A DNA stretch of 30,574 nucleotides from positions 1-30,574 of the IMG/VR virus record IMGVR_UViG_3300012347_000187. One strand, given 5' to 3'. Positions within the stretch are counted from its first letter, which is position 1, and each line of letters begins with the position of its first letter. The stretch comes from a virus (taxonomy: Duplodnaviria; Caudoviricetes). Made by a program: the position numbers and the translations under genes. Shown here piece by piece: positions 10,448 through 30,574 of the stretch. The notes under the pieces are model-generated. The model did not search any database. It was not told the DNA's origin and saw nothing but the letters and a program-made list of their open reading frames with translations.

Positions 10448-11023
10448 TCAGTCTTCAAAGTAGTTGCTATCATCATCTTCCCAGAGCTCCTCAATATAAT
10501 CGCCATTCTTGTCGTACTCTTGATAGTATGCTTCGTTGGGTGCAAGTATGCGGAAACTGTTTGGATACTTGATCAGTGCCAAGGTAAGTTCATGTTCGTC
10601 TCGCAGGTCACAAATAGCCCAACTGCTACTGCAAGCTCCAGTTACTTCCTTCATCTTACTATGCTCGAACTCTCCGGCCTTTAGTGCGTCCCACATCTGG
10701 CCGCCCCAGCTCATAATGATACGACCTGCTCGTCGCTCGGGATGTTTTAGCCAAGCATCTGCTATGCCCAACTTACTAATTGTGGCTGTGTTATCTGAAT
10801 CTATGGTTAGCTTACACTTCTTAAACTTGATACTGCCCTTGGTCTTTTCATTACCGGGCGTTTCCTTGGTGCTCCAAGGCATTTCAGAAGTTACGTGGTT
10901 GACGTAGAACGTGACGCCATGTGCTTTAACGACCCACATAGGTATAGTCGGATCTGCCAAGTGTCCTTTGTTAAAGTGAAACACTAGGTCTTTACATGCA
11001 TATTCAATCTATTGTTGTGACAT
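10448..11023 (-). CDS. Hypothetical protein with in-frame TAG at codon 5 (191 aa if suppressed)
   Basis: AAGGAG SD, then ATG TCA CAA CAA TAG ATT GAA TAT GCA TGT AAA GAC CTA GTG TTT CAC, in frame with the 10448-10984 ORF. Confidence 0.7.
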
Positions 11024-11052
11024 TTTTATCTCCTTGGTTATGTCTAATATAT

Positions 11053-11334
11053 TTAATCCATGATTGCGAAGATGTCTTCTTCTTTTGTTACCAGAAGAGT
11101 TTCTCCGTTAACAGTAACACTAATGGTTGCGTTCGGGTTATACAATACCCGGTCGCCAACTTTGACTGTGAGTGGGATGACTGTGGTGCTGTCCTTAACA
11201 GGCTTGCCTGTGCCGACTGCAATTATAGTGGCTTCGAACGTTACGTCAGATGTACCAGCTAATACCAACCCGCTTGCTGTTTTCTTTTCTGGTTCAATCT
11301 TCTTGATTAAAACTCTATCGTGCATTACTTGCAT
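11053..11334 (-). CDS. groES: Co-chaperonin GroES
   Basis: HDRVLI, KTASGLVL, IIAVGTG, VKVGDRVLY, EEDIFAI. Confidence 0.93.
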   Translation of the reverse strand: MQVMHDRVLIKKIEPEKKTASGLVLAGTSDVTFEATIIAVGTGKPVKDSTTVIPLTVKVGDRVLYNPNATISVTVNGETLLVTKEEDIFAIMD

Positions 11335-11349
11335 TGCTGTTCCTTGTTT

Positions 11350-11463
11350 ACCATAGTTAAGTACACTGCCGGAGTAGCAAGAACCAACTTGCCCACTTTG
11401 TTCCGTCCTGGATAGATTACTCTACTGGTTCCCAGGCAAACCGCTAATGTACTTAACTATGGT
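11350..11463 (-). ncRNA. Candidate structured RNA enclosed by a 16-bp stem
   Basis: accatagttaagtaca (11350-11365) / tgtacttaactatggt (11448-11463); inner CCUGG/CCAGG stem and UAGA-GUAA-UCUA GNRA hairpin. Confidence 0.55.
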
Positions 11464-11536
11464 GCGCCAGATGGGAATCGAACCCACTTCGTACTGGTTT
11501 AGAATCAGTTGCCCTGACCATCCGGGCTACTGGCGC
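11460..11536 (-). tRNA. Amber-suppressor tRNA (anticodon CUA)
   Basis: GCGCCAG TA GCCC GGATGGTCA GGGC A ACTGA TT-CTA-AA CCAGT ACGAA GTGGG TTCGATT CCCAT CTGGCGC ACCA. Full cloverleaf with encoded CCA; one A-C mismatch closes the anticodon loop. Confidence 0.88.
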
Positions 11537-11785: not shown

Positions 11786-12158
11786 GGTTGGTTATTTAAC
11801 AAGGCCTTTCCTGCCCCGTGGGTTTCGCTGTTTAGGCGAATGCTGCCTCAGTTTGAGCAACTTTGCTACCGCCGAAACGGAAACCTTTAGCTGCTTTTAC
11901 TTTGACTGTGCCCATTGTTGTAGATGTTTTTGCATTTACTTTAGTTTGCTTCTTCGGCCGGGAAATACTGATATCATATTGACATAACATTACTGTACTC
12001 TTAACCCCAACCCTAACGACTTCTACTTTGCCGAGTAGATCCTGTCAATACTATTTGCCCAATCAATCACCATGTCACCCCCACCTAAATATACAGCATA
12101 CACTTAGGTGGAGGTGCCGGCTTCGAAGCCGGGTCTTGAACACTTTTCTATCAAAGCA
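11786..12158 (-). ncRNA. ssrA: Circularly permuted (two-piece) tmRNA
   Basis: Acceptor piece comes first (T-arm, CACCTCC-A-CC at 12116-12107), then a hairpin spacer, then the 5' end GGGGGTG at 12082. The acceptor stem has G3:U70 and P2 pairs TTGGGCA/TGTTCAA. Resume context is GTAAAT-GCA with tag frame 11933-11832. Outer ends are approximate. Confidence 0.85.
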
Positions 12159-12917
12159 TTAAACTACTATACTTTTTCGTGGTATACTTGATTCAAGTCT
12201 GCCACTACTAAATCCTTTACTAACATATTCCTGTTCTTTTTCAAAAAATATGAAATGTTCAGTAATACCATTATTTACCCAAAGTTTTTTAGGAGCGTAG
12301 CCTTTCTTGCCCCTTACCCATCCTTCTGGTATATCATCATCTATTGTAATGCGTTTTACTTCTTTTGTCAACACATTAGAAATCCATATCCTGCCGAACT
12401 GCGAATTCTTCTCGCCTTGACTGTGCTTTATTTCTTCAAAAGTACTTTTTCGTTTAGCATTTGCTTCGGGTGTATTTGCCTTCTGCCCTATTAGTCTCAT
12501 TCTGCTCGGGGATCTGGTCCATGCAACAGTTTTTTGAAATTCAGGATCTTTAAAAGGATTACTGGCTCTACTAGAACTGTTCTGACCACCTAGCCTGGAT
12601 TTTTCCCGATGCTTATCTGACCCATTGTAATGATCCCACCCACCTGGGCCACCTTTGTGCATATTGTAGGTGTCTTTACGCTTTACGAAATCTTCTGTTA
12701 CTATACTTAACTCTTTGTTAGCCATCTCGTCCATTGATGAGCAGTAATGTAAAACTTCTTTCTTGAAATTTTCTATACCATATTTTTCTATTGCGGCTTT
12801 GATTTGTTTGCCTGATCCGTAATAACCGTTAGCATCTGGATGTATTGCGGACTTGTGTTTGCCCACATATATCTTGTTATTCAGGAGGTTAGTAATTTGA
12901 TATACATAGTAATACAT
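12159..12917 (-). mobile_element. Free-standing Seg-like GIY-YIG homing endonuclease gene
   Basis: YVYQITN...IYVG, YYGSG, FKKEVL, YN catalytic domain; NUMOD3-like GEKNSQFG and WxxNG/IPEGWVRG repeats; AT-rich. Confidence 0.88.
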
Positions 12918-25369: not shown

Positions 25370-25611
25370 TTCCCTTTAATCTTAAAGATAAGATGTTCCA
25401 TCTTATCGTGCCAGCGATGATCTATAATAGGTTCGCCCGGACCAGTTAGTACACTAGTACCACGATACGCATACTCTAGCCACAAGCGGCGCCCAGTTAG
25501 GTCACACTCCTGTGGCCACCACGCAAACTTTAGTTGCCATCCGACACAACGGCGATAAAACCAGCCATCGTCAAATTCAACTCGGTTGCGTTTGTATGCG
25601 TAGCCTGCCAT
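25366..25611 (-). CDS. Trp-rich hypothetical protein
   Basis: TAATG-coupled to queE; start 25611. Confidence 0.6.
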   Translation of the reverse strand: MAGYAYKRNRVEFDDGWFYRRCVGWQLKFAWWPQECDLTGRRLWLEYAYRGTSVLTGPGEPIIDHRWHDKMEHLIFKIKGN

Positions 25612-26468
25612 TACTTGCCCCAGCCGTTGCCCCACAAGTCAACGTGTAGGCGTGGGCTGTAGTTGTAGCCTTTGGTCAGTGCCCAATCTGCGACCTTAAC
25701 ACGATTCTGTGCATACGGAGTAACAACACCACCTTGTGGCATTACATACACTGGACCGTTAAATCCAACTGCACGATATTGTGCTACTGCGCGATCTACT
25801 TCTGCAAAGTGTTGTTCTGTTTCTACAACAAACTTCAAGTAGGTAAAGCCATAGTCTTGATACATGCGCACAATCTCTGGACGAATCGCTTCATCCCATG
25901 CTTCGCCACTTGCACTTAGCTTAGGGCTTACACTGAATGTAACTTCGTTGCCAGCAATTTCGCTCCAGTTAAGCAAGTAATCAATGAACTTGTTTTGCAG
26001 AGTTTGTGTGCCGTTTGTTTCAAAGGTGATGTTACGCAGGTCTTGCATACGTTCGTTGCTCAACAGTTCTTCGTATGCACGTTGCCATCCTAGTAATGGC
26101 TCACCACCTGTGATAACTAGATGCACATCATTGCCGTTGTCCTGTACCCACTTGTGGTTAGGAGTTAATGCCAATATGTCATCCACGAGTTCTCGTGTGT
26201 CCTTTGTTGGGCTAAGATCCTTAAAGGCAGGGTGCCAGGATGCGTAACTGTCACAACCAGTGTTAACGAGTGGGAGGCTAAGAAAGTCTTTATACAGGTG
26301 GACATTTTCTGCCACCGCGTCTGCCTCCTTACTCTTTTCACCTGGCGCACAACCAAAACCGGAGCAAGTAAAATTGCATCCGAATGTACGAAGGAAAACT
26401 GACGGAACACCAACAAAGCGGCCTTCGCCCTGAGCAGAATAGAATAGTTCACTTACTTTGATTTTCAT
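25611..26468 (-). CDS. queE: 7-carboxy-7-deazaguanine synthase (radical SAM)
   Basis: ELFYSAQGEG..VG.PSVFLR..GCNF.C...CDS, ITGGEPL, ETNG, SVSPK, PRLH..LWG. Confidence 0.9.
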   Translation of the reverse strand: MKIKVSELFYSAQGEGRFVGVPSVFLRTFGCNFTCSGFGCAPGEKSKEADAVAENVHLYKDFLSLPLVNTGCDSYASWHPAFKDLSPTKDTRELVDDILALTPNHKWVQDNGNDVHLVITGGEPLLGWQRAYEELLSNERMQDLRNITFETNGTQTLQNKFIDYLLNWSEIAGNEVTFSVSPKLSASGEAWDEAIRPEIVRMYQDYGFTYLKFVVETEQHFAEVDRAVAQYRAVGFNGPVYVMPQGGVVTPYAQNRVKVADWALTKGYNYSPRLHVDLWGNGWGK

Positions 26469-27274
26469 AATTTATATTTAGAGTTGGGATCGGTTTCTAT
26501 AAACATTTTCTCAACAATCCATGCTACTGGATCGTATTCGCCGGGCATTACTGCTTGCGAGTAGTTGTTTGGAAACCTATGGTGGTTGTTGTGCAAGCCT
26601 TCACCAATTTGGAAAGCTTGAATCCATTTGTTGTTTGTGCTGTTGTCTGACGTTTCAAAATTTCTATAGCTACCTGGCAAGTTCAAGTGCGCCAATCCAT
26701 TGGTCATTACACTGGAGTTAATTGTAGCAAACGCAGCAGGAAAAAGCAGCAGGAAAAGGCAAATTTTCCAAGAAATAATTAAGGTAACCACAATTAGTGC
26801 TAGCCAAATACGATCCCAGTTTTCGTGGACAAATTTTACATATTTGTCTTTGAGCAAGGCGTATGGGGCCCACATCATCTTTCGATTTTCTGCATGTCTT
26901 GGAAAGAGACGGCAAGTCAATGTAGCATAAACCAAACCATCTTGTGTTGGGCTATGTATGTCTTTATCTGAGTCACTGAACTTGTGGTGATGGTAATGAG
27001 TAGCGGCCCAACCTGCTGGAGTACCTTCACCTGCCAACAAGCTTGCCCAACATAAGAATATATGTCTATACTTTCCTGTAGTAAATGTGCGGTGAGCAAA
27101 ATATCTGTGCAAGCCAATTTGGACGCCAAACACTCCTAGTAGCTTTGAATAGACAATACCTGCTGCCAGCCACCACCACATGCCGTACATGTACGTAACC
27201 ACTAATGTCAATGGAATGGTAGCAAACCATATAGCATGGTATATATAGTTCCTAGTAGGCACAGGCAAGCTCAT
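26465..27274 (-). CDS. Delta-9-type membrane fatty-acid desaturase
   Basis: His boxes HRYFAH, HYHHH and HNNHH; D.HSP; TM segments. Confidence 0.9.
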   Translation of the reverse strand: MSLPVPTRNYIYHAIWFATIPLTLVVTYMYGMWWWLAAGIVYSKLLGVFGVQIGLHRYFAHRTFTTGKYRHIFLCWASLLAGEGTPAGWAATHYHHHKFSDSDKDIHSPTQDGLVYATLTCRLFPRHAENRKMMWAPYALLKDKYVKFVHENWDRIWLALIVVTLIISWKICLFLLLFPAAFATINSSVMTNGLAHLNLPGSYRNFETSDNSTNNKWIQAFQIGEGLHNNHHRFPNNYSQAVMPGEYDPVAWIVEKMFIETDPNSKYKL

Positions 27275-27555
27275 ACTGTGTCATCTTTAAAAATATTTGA
27301 CCACTGTCTTAGTTTTTCAAGCTTGTTGTCTTTTGCAATCATAACATCTTGAAAAGATACAATACCGTAGTCGTGGCATAGGGTAATCATGGCTAGTAGA
27401 TCGCCTAGTTCTTCTGCTAGATGTGCTCGATTTGTTAGTTCTTTACCTGGCTTGAAATTGTCTAGGCCAAAGCGGTTGATCTTGCTAATAGCAACAATCA
27501 CTTCTGCACATTCCTCTTGGGTAATATCCAATATTTCTTTTTCTTTTGAGTTCAT
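27271..27555 (-). CDS. MazG-like NTP pyrophosphohydrolase
   Basis: QEECAE...EELGDL motif. Confidence 0.75.
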   Translation of the reverse strand: MNSKEKEILDITQEECAEVIVAISKINRFGLDNFKPGKELTNRAHLAEELGDLLAMITLCHDYGIVSFQDVMIAKDNKLEKLRQWSNIFKDDTV

Positions 27556-27558
27556 AAT

Positions 27559-27768
27559 TTATGTTCCGCAGTCCATGCGCCATGCACAGCGACTCAACAT
27601 AAATGTAGAGCAATCGTCTTCACCAAAACAAGGAGGACGATCAGTTCGCTGTAAACGAATCATGGTGTGTATGGCTTTTCTTTCTTCGCTATCCCTATGC
27701 CCGGTATTACAGAGGGTGGCTTCTTCGTTTAGAAGATCTTGCAGTGTAGGTTCTTTGTTTGCAGGCAT
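27559..27768 (-). CDS. Small Cys-rich hypothetical protein
   Basis: PPCFG.DDCS...C.W..DC; start uncertain (27768 or 27807). Confidence 0.55.
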   Translation of the reverse strand: MPANKEPTLQDLLNEEATLCNTGHRDSEERKAIHTMIRLQRTDRPPCFGEDDCSTFMLSRCAWRMDCGT

Positions 27769-27782
27769 AGGAAACTTATCAA

Positions 27783-28286
27783 TTACGCAAAAAGGTCCTC
27801 GTTCCATTCACGATGTCCTTCGCGGTAAGCCATGTTGCTTTGTGTTTCGCGTACTTCCACGCGGTAGCACCACAAACGCTCTGCTTCACTTGGGCCCCAC
27901 ATCTCGGGAATATAAACGCCATTGATGTATTTGTAAAGCATATCGCTTAGTGCTTCACACCCTAGTGCAGGCAGCACAACAATCTTGGCCATATTCTTTT
28001 CTTGTAGCAGCTTGAATGTTTCCATTTCTGGATCATCCTGTGCAACAATAAGCGTATGGTCGAATTGATCTTCGAGTGTCTTCTTTAGTTCTTTGAGTCC
28101 ACCGTAATCAGCAGCCCAGTTGCGAACGTCTAGGTCATTGGTTCCAAAATAGAACTTCATGCTAAATGCGTAACCGTGAATTAGATTACAGTGTGAGTCT
28201 GCACGCCACTGGCGGTATGCCACTGGAAATGCATTGTGATATTCTTTTGTGCTTGTGTACTTGTATTGTACGGTTGGTAATGTCAT
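27783..28286 (-). CDS. queD: 6-carboxy-tetrahydropterin synthase (PTPS family)
   Basis: SHCNLIHGY, D.GGLK, FDH, VRET; clustered with queE and folE. Confidence 0.88.
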   Translation of the reverse strand: MTLPTVQYKYTSTKEYHNAFPVAYRQWRADSHCNLIHGYAFSMKFYFGTNDLDVRNWAADYGGLKELKKTLEDQFDHTLIVAQDDPEMETFKLLQEKNMAKIVVLPALGCEALSDMLYKYINGVYIPEMWGPSEAERLWCYRVEVRETQSNMAYREGHREWNEDLFA

Positions 28287-28289
28287 GCT

Positions 28290-28365
28290 TTTTCTCCTAT
28301 GTTAAATTTTAGCATAGGCTTGCAGAATTTGTATAGCGGGATGAATGCCAGAAAGGCCGCTGGTT
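28290..28365 (-). promoter_or_regulatory. Candidate riboswitch-like leader of queD
   Basis: AGCGG/CCGCU stem plus A-rich tail, then a CCUAUG/CAUAGG hairpin covering the SD. Confidence 0.45.
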
Positions 28366-28375
28366 GAATATGTAT

Positions 28376-28906
28376 TTATGCCCACCAGTTCTCCCAGGGA
28401 AAAACACACCAAACATCTTCTTCGGCTTTGTTGATGCTATGCCCTGCATAACTGATTTCTTTAAATGCACTTGCTTCGTTGTTAACTAAAACGGCGAAGC
28501 GAACATTGGCACCCCAGACGTCTTCCCACGCTAGTGCGTTAGGCATGCATCCGCTTGGCCAATCTTGTTTGATCCAATTGATAGTTGAACCTTGATCATT
28601 GATGTCGTCAATGACTAAAATGTTGTGACGCTTGCTCGGGCGACTTCCGCCTTCTTCGTAGCCAAATGCGTCTTCGGCCATCCACAAGTTGCTTTCACTG
28701 CCTTCGTCTGTGCCATCACGTAATCTCACGTTAAGAGTATGCATGGGCACGTTCATGTAGTGACTAAGCATAGTAGCAGGGATCAAGCCGCCGCGTGTTA
28801 GGCCCACAATGTAGTCGGGTCGCCAATTATCGGCAACCATACCACGAATAACATTGTGTAGGTATCCTTGAATGTCCTGCTGTGTATAATGAACTTTTTT
28901 AGACAT
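28376..28906 (-). CDS. Type I phosphoribosyltransferase (Gpt-like)
   Basis: IVGLTRGGLIPA, PRPP loop ILVIDDINDQGST, W.VFPWE. Confidence 0.88.
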   Translation of the reverse strand: MSKKVHYTQQDIQGYLHNVIRGMVADNWRPDYIVGLTRGGLIPATMLSHYMNVPMHTLNVRLRDGTDEGSESNLWMAEDAFGYEEGGSRPSKRHNILVIDDINDQGSTINWIKQDWPSGCMPNALAWEDVWGANVRFAVLVNNEASAFKEISYAGHSINKAEEDVWCVFPWENWWA

Positions 28907-29219
28907 AGTGTTTTTCGTTTAAGTTGTGTTGTTGTACGTGCTCAAAGAATTTGACAATGAATACGCTAGCAGTGCTAGCATCGTCACCGTGGAAGTTAAG
29001 TCTAACACCACCGGATCCATCCTGGCGCCAGTAGCTTTGTTTGCCCTTGCCGTATTTTACTAAGGGCTTTTTACTTTCGCGACCTTTCCAGTCCCAATCC
29101 ATTTTATATGTAACTTCACCGCCAATCATTTCAAACCACTCAATCATTTCGTCAGTGAGCCGATCGATTTCGATTGCAATAAAGTAATTAACAGTAACTC
29201 CCGGGGGCAATGCAATCAT
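28899..29219 (-). CDS. Hypothetical protein
   Basis: 106 aa; operonic. Confidence 0.65.
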   Translation of the reverse strand: MIALPPGVTVNYFIAIEIDRLTDEMIEWFEMIGGEVTYKMDWDWKGRESKKPLVKYGKGKQSYWRQDGSGGVRLNFHGDDASTASVFIVKFFEHVQQHNLNEKHYV

Positions 29220-29980
29220 TTGGCATCCTTGATAAAACTAGAGATAGCATCAGCAGTTTCAATGTATGCGCCCTGCATCATATGATATCCGCTGCGACAC
29301 GGATTCCCGTTTACTGCTACATCGCTGTCAACTGTAACAAATTCGGTTTTACGACTGTTAAGTAAACGGGCTTGTGTGTAATTGCGTTGCACGTCAGAGT
29401 AAAGAGTATGAATACACCCATCTTTAAGATGATGCACAAATAGTACCGGACGTGCTGGGTCTGCACTAAACTGGGAAACATCACGGGCACCGGATAAAAT
29501 TATGCCAGCAATCAAGTTGCTTTCGTTTTGTTTTTGCAATCGGCGCATCAGTGCGACTGCACTAAATGACCCGTTGCTATGACCCATTACCCATACTTTA
29601 TTGTTCTTGCCAAAATGTTTGACTACAGTTTCAAGCCGATCTAGGTGATCGCTGCTTTCTCGGAGACTTGGATAACTGCTACCTGCTGTTTCTAGAGGAT
29701 AAGGACTGTTAACTGCAACCACACTAAACCCAGTTGATTCGGCAATCGTTTTTAAGATAATACCAAACCCCCTGGGCTCAATTGACTGTGCAGGAATTGG
29801 AAACTGCCCATCTCCGCCGGGCAAGAAAACAACAACTCCTTTGGCATTGGGCTGCACAAACGAAAGAGTTACAGTATGTCCACTGGCCCAGAATGTGTCT
29901 GGCGGATTAAACCGCTGCACTTCAAAGCAATTCCCTGCGCTGGCAACGGCAAACAAAAGTGTTACAATTAGTTTTTTCAT
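29216..29980 (-). CDS. Secreted alpha/beta hydrolase
   Basis: Signal peptide MKKLIVTLLFAVASA; PGG; GHSNG nucleophile elbow; late D and H. Confidence 0.8.
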   Translation of the reverse strand: MKKLIVTLLFAVASAGNCFEVQRFNPPDTFWASGHTVTLSFVQPNAKGVVVFLPGGDGQFPIPAQSIEPRGFGIILKTIAESTGFSVVAVNSPYPLETAGSSYPSLRESSDHLDRLETVVKHFGKNNKVWVMGHSNGSFSAVALMRRLQKQNESNLIAGIILSGARDVSQFSADPARPVLFVHHLKDGCIHTLYSDVQRNYTQARLLNSRKTEFVTVDSDVAVNGNPCRSGYHMMQGAYIETADAISSFIKDAK

Positions 29981-30010
29981 ACTTTATTGTAACACTGATG
30001 CCATTATGCG

Positions 30011-30574
30011 TCAACGAGGGGCAAATTCCTGTTGTAGCTTGATGTTGTCAAAGAACTCTTTCTTTACCGATGGATCGGTTTTAAAAGCTCCTTCAAGTAC
30101 AGTGGTCTGGGTGAGACTAGAGTGAGCCATAATACCACGATTCTCACAGCATCCATGGGTAGCCTGGATATAAACTGCAACGTCACTGGATGCAGTTGCA
30201 AATTTAATCTCACGAGCGATGTCCATACAGAGTTCTTCCTGTAGTGTTCCGCGTCTAGCGCACCACTGTGCAATCCGGGTGTACTTCGAAAGTCCAATGA
30301 GTTTTGGTCCAGCAATAATGCCAATGTAAGCCACACCCGTAACAGGTTGGTGATGGTGCGAACACATGCTCTTAAGCTCACTGCGCACAACCAACATGCC
30401 TTCGTACTTTCCTTCTGTGTCGTTTGGGAAAGCAGTTGCATTAGGTGTAGGTTCATAGCGACCAGCCATGATTTCATTGTAGTACATTTTTGCAAGGCGG
30501 CGTGCCGTGCCTTTAGAGTTCGGATCATTTTCGCGGTCAATCAATAGTGTGTCTAGTACTTTTTCAAATGCTTC
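30011..30574 (-). CDS. folE: GTP cyclohydrolase I (5' end outside window)
   Basis: T..RLAKM, SMCSHH, GLSK..R, QE, HGCC..RG; frame open to the window edge. Confidence 0.95.
   Translation of the reverse strand, partial: EAFEKVLDTLLIDRENDPNSKGTARRLAKMYYNEIMAGRYEPTPNATAFPNDTEGKYEGMLVVRSELKSMCSHHHQPVTGVAYIGIIAGPKLIGLSKYTRIAQWCARRGTLQEELCMDIAREIKFATASSDVAVYIQATHGCCENRGIMAHSSLTQTTVLEGAFKTDPSVKKEFFDNIKLQQEFAPR

Follow-up and report, generated by a model that had tools for sequence, protein, structure and literature searches.

The window, that is, the whole 30,574-nucleotide stretch of viral DNA analysed here (Caudoviricetes; IMG/VR record IMGVR_UViG_3300012347_000187), carries on its minus strand a tRNA gene with the anticodon CUA, groES, and a gene, here called X, whose ATG is followed after a few codons by an in-frame TAG (Table 1). 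This arrangement had been described from the letters alone (the sequence-only reading) and is as described: ARAGORN and Rfam RF00005 both return a complete tRNA-CUA, and the Shine-Dalgarno (SD) sequence, the ATG, the TAG at codon 5 and the open frame beyond it are all in place. Downstream of the TAG, the frame of gene X runs through 186 further codons to a TGA at 10448. The tRNA has G1-C72, C2-G71, A73, an A31.C39 mismatch and an encoded CCA. groES is a passenger and not a constant neighbour, the distance from the tRNA to gene X ranging from about 100 bp to more than 3 kb in relatives. Just upstream of the tRNA gene, a candidate sigma-70-like promoter is seen by eye (11572-11545, minus strand; TTGAAG, 16 bases, TATAAT). 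A GIY-YIG homing endonuclease gene (12159-12917) immediately precedes the permuted tmRNA, and a tmRNA is found near gene X in loci L006, L021 and L030 too. Elsewhere in the window (25611-30574, minus strand), ORFs resemble QueE, QueD and FolE in their motifs, which suggests a 7-deazaguanine pathway.

Table 1. Features of the gene X locus and its surroundings in the window
Feature	Position	Strand	Basis or remark
tRNA, anticodon CUA, amber suppressor-type	11460..11536	-	ARAGORN; Rfam RF00005, 58 bits
groES	11053..11334	-	Between tRNA-CUA and gene X; Cpn10, E 1.4e-21
Shine-Dalgarno AAGGAG	11030..11035	-	Read from the sequence
Gate mini-ORF ATG-TCA-CAA-CAA-TAG	11009..11023	-	ATG 11023-11021; TAG = codon 5, 11011-11009; next base A
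Gene X, gated	10448..11023	-	191 codons upon readthrough of the TAG
N-terminal all-beta domain of X	10769..11008	-	Alignment; model, pLDDT 94.7
C-terminal ferredoxin-like domain of X (ACT/RRM-type topology)	10493..10738	-	Model; best Z 5.2, not significant
Permuted (two-piece) tmRNA	11886..12168	-	Rfam RF04321, 70.5 bits; 350 bp upstream of tRNA-CUA; context

Three contigs from three other studies (X3, X4 and X5) show no other letter at 11009-11011 among the differences listed. The same holds for contig X1, a possible source of the window. In two RNA-library contigs of relatives (X15 and X17), a kind of record that cannot show transcription, SD, ATG and TAG are unchanged. Contig X3 is a close relative with a different tRNA sequence at 11468-11532 and near-identical flanks, which suggests that its tRNA may have been exchanged alone.

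The early stop (hereafter the gate) is widespread. Of the 52 loci from a first scan of viral contigs, 51 have an ATG and then a TAG within a few codons at the same place. From a second scan of 80 loci, 78 new identifiers were read, 14 of them re-fetched contigs, and 77 show the same order. When all loci were pooled and only distinct 5' sequences kept, dropping hits less than 75 bases from a locus end and without requiring an SD, 101 of 109 homologue 5' ends have an ATG followed by TAG at codon 2-10, a count which, like those for the tRNA below, is not one of independent cases since the loci share ancestry. None of the 109 has TAA or TGA in the gate position. The TAG is thus not private to the window, and its recurrence in so many distinct 5' ends shows that the arrangement is not due to chance. 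Purine-rich sites like AAGGAG also precede the ATG in the homologues, as judged by eye, and the TAG and the HFNK motif are 7 to 14 codons apart.

The residues between the TAG and an internal GTG, which the sequence-only reading had singled out for alignment, are conserved: Cys is found there in 81 of 86 homologues and Lys in 73 of 86. The Val codon at the position of the window's GTG is GTG in just 56 of the 86. In the structural model, the residues from TAG to GTG form strand 1 of the N-terminal domain (pLDDT 96). As the domain is predicted with confidence and would lose its first strand, a start at the GTG cannot yield it.

The base right after the TAG is an A in 95 of 101 gates and in 20 of 100 true TAG stops. 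An A at this +4 position is reported to raise amber suppression (PMC6266110); the bias may partly stem from a usually conserved Ile codon, whose first base it is. Databases also hold full-length X proteins with Q at the stop, one of which is identical to the product of the window's gene X and comes from a 964-bp contig. Short contigs are the source of the representatives examined; where a member lies on a long contig, it starts internally. This Q may come from gene callers choosing code 15, and real CAG alleles may lie behind some of these proteins; no CAG was found at the gate among the 109 homologue DNA sequences. The TAG lies in a variable N-terminal stretch of the homologues, where the alignment of Q may itself be a gene-caller product. 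Six GTDB contigs in metagenome-assembled genomes match as well, five of them shorter than 8 kb, and were taken as probable phage DNA.

Gene X and tRNA-CUA occur together. Of the 52 loci of the first scan, 31 have a tRNA-CUA detected by ARAGORN at default settings, which miss some tRNAs (for example, in G002). When scoring was relaxed or a family pattern used, one was found within 4 kb on the same strand in 103 of 116 distinct gene X loci (98 upstream, 5 downstream), the anticodon having been checked for some only of the pattern-only hits. Among loci with a full upstream flank, 80 of 83 have it within 4 kb. In whole records the pattern matches in 35 of 50, and in all five that are near-complete. 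Conversely, gene X is present at 18 of 29 sampled CUA-tRNA loci and at none of 51 other-tRNA loci; this reverse test drew 80 loci with wide flanks from 5 of the 64 parts of the collection, and its pattern also catches tRNA-Arg(UCU), which serves as a built-in control. The linkage of gene X and tRNA-CUA is found in both directions; the sequence-only reading had proposed to check whether the TAG co-occurs with tRNA-CUA across related phages. Several CUA-tRNA loci show no gate within 5 kb, and matches to a loose tRNA pattern are no more numerous than in the control.

In the tRNA-CUA family, 99.3% of stem cells are paired and 15 of 18 pairs show compensatory change, as measured on a structure derived from the same alignment; these figures indicate that the tRNA-CUAs are under structural selection. 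The cloverleaf is canonical, with CUA, U33, A37 and CCA; the UCUAA loop and G1-C72 are invariant in 55 sequences. Across the family G1-C72 and C2-G71 are kept, and A73 is present in 132 of 160. A mismatch at 31-39 is found in 94 of 160 CUA tRNAs versus 29 of 489 other tRNAs. Engineered CUA tRNAs are charged with Lys or Gln by host enzymes, and either may be the residue carried here. In one clade (L415-L427), a lone gated PTH2-like gene has two or three tRNA-CUA genes nearby. At L233:5152 onward, about 110 bases after a tRNA-CUA, TAG comes immediately after an ATG and leads into 63 open codons; this may be a further gated gene.

Eight X homologues are ungated. Six of them (L027, L067, L349, L456, Phosso and Atu_ph07) lie downstream of another gene with an early stop, whose product has the PTH2 fold. 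This gene is mostly joined to X by a small helical gene in between, by overlapping stop and start codons, or by a fusion to X. As to the remaining two, the only candidate gate of L258 is a distant ATG-TTG-TAG with no clear SD, and L347 stands as an exception. G004 is the reverse case, with the gate on X and none on the PTH2-like gene. It appears from these arrangements that one gate per operon may be enough, either on X or on the upstream PTH2-fold gene. The small helical family is seen at L027:3738-4001, at L456:3528-3791 and in the N-terminus of L132:5698-6228 (Phosso), placed between the PTH2-fold gene and X, and is fused to X in Phosso and Atu_ph07; the likeness was judged by eye, and there is no Pfam match above cut-off.

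Among 70 loci of the PTH2-like family (not deduplicated), 53 are TAG-gated, 16 ungated and one TGA-gated. A tRNA-CUA lies within 5 kb of 45 of the 53 TAG-gated genes and is nearby in 8 of the 16 ungated ones. The TGA-gated gene belongs to a metagenomic phage (L482) which has two tRNA-UCA genes. In Atu_ph07, the PTH2 gene is entered through M-I-G-E-H-F-TGA, and the phage has a tRNA-UCA, the only suppressor reported for it in the portion of PMC6102473 consulted. Phosso enters the same PTH2 gene through M-K-Y-TAG and has a tRNA-CUA. That stop and anticodon switch together in two cases (L482 and Atu_ph07) is the best evidence for decoding of the gate by the tRNA. L482 also has a second TGA-gated gene (6619 onward), which begins M-T-W-S-TGA and encodes an HD-like motif.

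The assignment to PTH2 differs in firmness among these proteins. Phosso gp267 matches PTH2 (PF01981) with an E-value of 2e-16, above the Pfam cut-off, versus 0.016-0.079, below the cut-off, for the stand-alone gated family (L027, L067 and L208). A profile of the latter matches a solved peptidyl-tRNA hydrolase (PDB 24bt) with an E-value of 0.0006. The lysine of the GK motif is catalytic in PTH2. This motif, present in Phosso and in the solved PTH2 proteins, is absent from the stand-alone gated family, which makes hydrolase activity uncertain there.

Gated genes also occur in cultured phages, where GenBank annotations omit or truncate them. In Rhizobium phage RHph_I1_18, an unannotated gated X ends just before a tRNA-CUA. 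A PTH2-like query matched 33 phage records, of which 10 were opened and 9 are gated: RsoM2USA, Arash, GAP32, fHe-Yen9-04, BF, ME3 and LR756511, together with XacN1 and CM1, where the gated gene is an HD-PTH2 fusion. The tRNA-CUA of seven of these is known from ARAGORN, annotation or a paper, and that of BF and CM1 from the pattern only. RaK2 has no gate in its PTH2-like gene, and a search of that phage for tRNA-CUA found none. XacN1 has two amber suppressors, for which the accessible part of the genome paper reports no target; its authors checked downstream of annotated amber stops and found none (PMC5852040). The consulted text on RsoM2USA, whose suppressor is CUA, likewise names no target (PMC8504454). 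XacN1, RsoM2USA and Atu_ph07 each have in their genome an N-terminal gate that matches the stop of their suppressor. In Salmonella phage Arash, a tRNA annotated as Phe (L352:2810-2884) has the anticodon CUA according to ARAGORN, and the annotation of the gated PTH2-like gene begins at an internal start. The tRNA-CUA of Phosso, annotated as undetermined, has C1-G72 and G73. A class II synthetase core of 250 aa follows it as the second gene, and the two (L132:379-1538) are possibly a phage-encoded charging pair. An orthogonal synthetase of this kind (Phosso gp258) was considered for the gate at large and set aside, no homologue being found in the window, in three complete genomes or in 132 other loci.

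The standard code is used elsewhere in these genomes. TAG ends 2 of 56 or 3 of 54 called genes in the window, depending on the set of gene calls. In three complete relatives (350-374 kb), the counts are 36 of 484, 22 of 357 and 42 of 477. Genome-wide or region-wide recoding of TAG (code 15) was rejected, since in the complete relatives and the window TAG ends 6-9% of genes and coding density under code 11 is 0.88-0.94. This agrees with the earlier statement that the window is not recoded as a whole. A scan of the three complete genomes for other gates returned weak candidates only, with all three stops; its sensitivity was limited, as it missed the known short gate of G004.

Protein X has 995 homologous proteins of similar length and 272 short homologues. 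Its N-terminal domain, of about 80 aa, has invariant FHFNK, W, K, H, ET and TKG and is the whole protein in many phages, the C-terminal domain being absent from the short homologues. Pfam and PHROG scans gave no match, a PDB sequence profile search nothing below E 0.67, and an ESM Atlas search no usable match. Fold searches against PDB representatives reached a best Z of 3.8 for the N-domain and 5.2 for the C-domain, neither significant, and fold matches in BFVD are confined to viral proteins that are uncharacterised or labelled DUF2061. This lack of a fold match is not proof of a new fold. X has no Pfam match to PTH2, and PTH2 is not among its PDB fold hits; a weak viral hit named peptidyl-tRNA hydrolase has E 0.32. 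A role for X as a release factor, considered because of a GGQ in the window protein, was rejected as the GGQ-like stretch is not conserved.

We infer the following sequence of events. Ribosomes would start at the SD-ATG of gene X, and release factor 1 would end most of them at the gate, giving a peptide of 2-9 residues. The phage tRNA, whose charging probably falls to a host synthetase, would read through the stop in a favourable UAG-A context, with more output once the tRNA has matured and been charged, or under weak termination. Full-length protein would be made only when the phage tRNA outcompetes the host release factor, and the gate would likely meter a phage translation-rescue module. 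The output of the operon would then report tRNA maturity or charging as well as termination capacity, and would turn on tRNA-recycling or translation-rescue factors. The exchange of the gate with the PTH2-fold gene of the same operon points to such a translation or tRNA quality-control module. Least certain is the proposal that X acts on tRNA or on stalled translation products, which its company suggests (PTH2-fold and HD-domain genes, tRNA clusters, tmRNA). That the gate is an early stop read by a matching phage tRNA is, judging from comparative sequence data, highly probable; the whole account, in which gate and tRNA meter a translation-rescue module, is probable. Weighing against it are the database proteins with Q at the stop, the ungated PTH2-like genes that have a tRNA-CUA nearby, the CUA-tRNA loci with no gate within 5 kb, and the homologues L258 and L347. 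Of the translational switch put forward by the sequence-only reading, the gate finds strong support in the conserved TAG and pre-GTG residues, the tRNA linkage, the standard code and the covariation of stop and anticodon. The purposes suggested for it, timing or a lock on a toxic gene, gained no direct support.

Such a timer or lock, holding the gene until the phage tRNA accumulates and having no part in translation rescue, would have the same anatomy as the gate described above, with the tRNA usually upstream on the same strand, and timing is proposed for recoded late genes by Borges et al. (10.1101/2021.08.26.457843). However, the other gated genes encode PTH2-fold and HD-domain proteins and not lysis or structural ones, X matched no toxin fold in the fold searches, and a co-transcribed tRNA would presumably give a short delay only. 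We consider this reading unlikely, although it ranks first among the alternatives. Next comes a mutual dependence without regulation, in which the tRNA serves some other end, for instance to disturb host termination, and the stop does no more than fix expression at a low, constant level or prevent loss of the tRNA. It is somewhat less plausible still, for the stop is kept at differing registers, in unrelated gene families, and as both TAG and TGA, and weaker ribosome-binding sites would presumably be a simpler way to lower expression. On the other hand, the frequent 31-39 mismatch may mean a weak suppressor, some tRNA-CUA loci have no gate nearby, and suppressors may impair host proteins, as suggested by Yutin et al. 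(PMC7886860).

Two further readings are very improbable. The stop might encode a special, pyrrolysine-like residue needed by the protein; indeed, ARAGORN labels the tRNA Pyl from its anticodon, and Phosso has its small class II synthetase core near the tRNA-CUA. However, the stop lies before the folded domain in a variable register, ungated forms exist, the D and T loops of the tRNAs are ordinary and position 73 is mostly A, two phages use TGA to the same effect, and the loci searched for the Phosso synthetase gave no homologue. Ranked last is the absence of any readthrough, the mini-ORF terminating with reinitiation at the next ATT or GTG, or gene X being a pseudogene or a sequencing error. 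ATT stands right after the TAG in 69 of 101 gates, and gene callers start at the GTG or at a later ATG; yet in 18 of 101 the next codon is AAA, ACT, GTT, GTA, AAC, AAT, AAG, GTC or CAA. Reinitiation, moreover, needs no TAG specifically, no preserved frame and no matching tRNA, and the codon is present in independent assemblies and in more than 100 relatives.

An extension of the preferred account, that of a gate metering translation rescue, is offered tentatively. In many lineages of large phages, a private suppressor tRNA could have as its main target one early stop that reports release-factor or charging status and switches on a rescue operon (PTH2-fold, HD, helical and new-fold X proteins), possibly against host defences that attack translation. 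Standard-code jumbo phages have long been noted to carry suppressor tRNAs with no known target, and the gate would offer one. It would also represent stop-codon recoding as a single-gene switch and a possible step towards genome-wide recoding. The cultured phages RHph_I1_18 and Phosso, whose hosts are harmless, make the switch testable, and the gate tRNAs, as putative natural bacterial amber and opal suppressors, may be of use in code-expansion work.

Several known systems share features with the gate. The prfB (RF2) autoregulatory frameshift and the back-up control of ArfA both use an early in-frame stop to sense termination or rescue capacity. The gate resembles them in its early in-frame stop and differs in that the bypass would be in frame, by a dedicated cognate tRNA, and the product is not a release factor. 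With the pyrrolysine system (pylT/pylS), it shares a tRNA-CUA and the presence of one in-frame UAG per target gene. tRNA-Pyl has a small D loop and G73 and lacks G18G19. The tRNA-CUA family does not have this shape, G18G19 and GTTCRA being conserved; unlike in the pyrrolysine system, its tRNAs are ordinary in shape, the stop is outside the folded domain, UGA is interchangeable, and no synthetase is seen in the module. Among the ORFs of the window, none stood out as pylS or pylBCD. The PTH2 fold (PF01981) is matched by the alternative gated gene, gene X itself being apparently unrelated to it. The suppressors of the jumbo phages XacN1 and RsoM2USA (CUA) and Atu_ph07 (UCA) are the same tRNAs as those considered here, with no target named in the consulted parts of their papers.

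In the largely open-access texts searched, no account of a conserved N-terminal suppressor-dependent stop gate was found, nor do the accessible parts of PMC8386662 and PMC13092985 mention an N-terminal stop gate. Phage recoding by suppressor tRNAs is described in three reports as a region-wide trait of late genes (10.1101/2021.08.26.457843; PMC7886860; PMC13037316). The recoded phages covered there (code 15 or code 4; crAss-like, Lak and Agate) are low-GC gut phages in which many late or lysis genes have stops at Gln or Trp. A phage-encoded tRNA-CUA is common to the code 15 phages and to the gene X loci. In contrast, the gene X loci have one conserved stop, early in a single gene or operon and in variable register, in standard-code genomes of 40-48% GC. 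Comparative data give good support to the single conserved N-terminal gate proposed here for phages of standard code.
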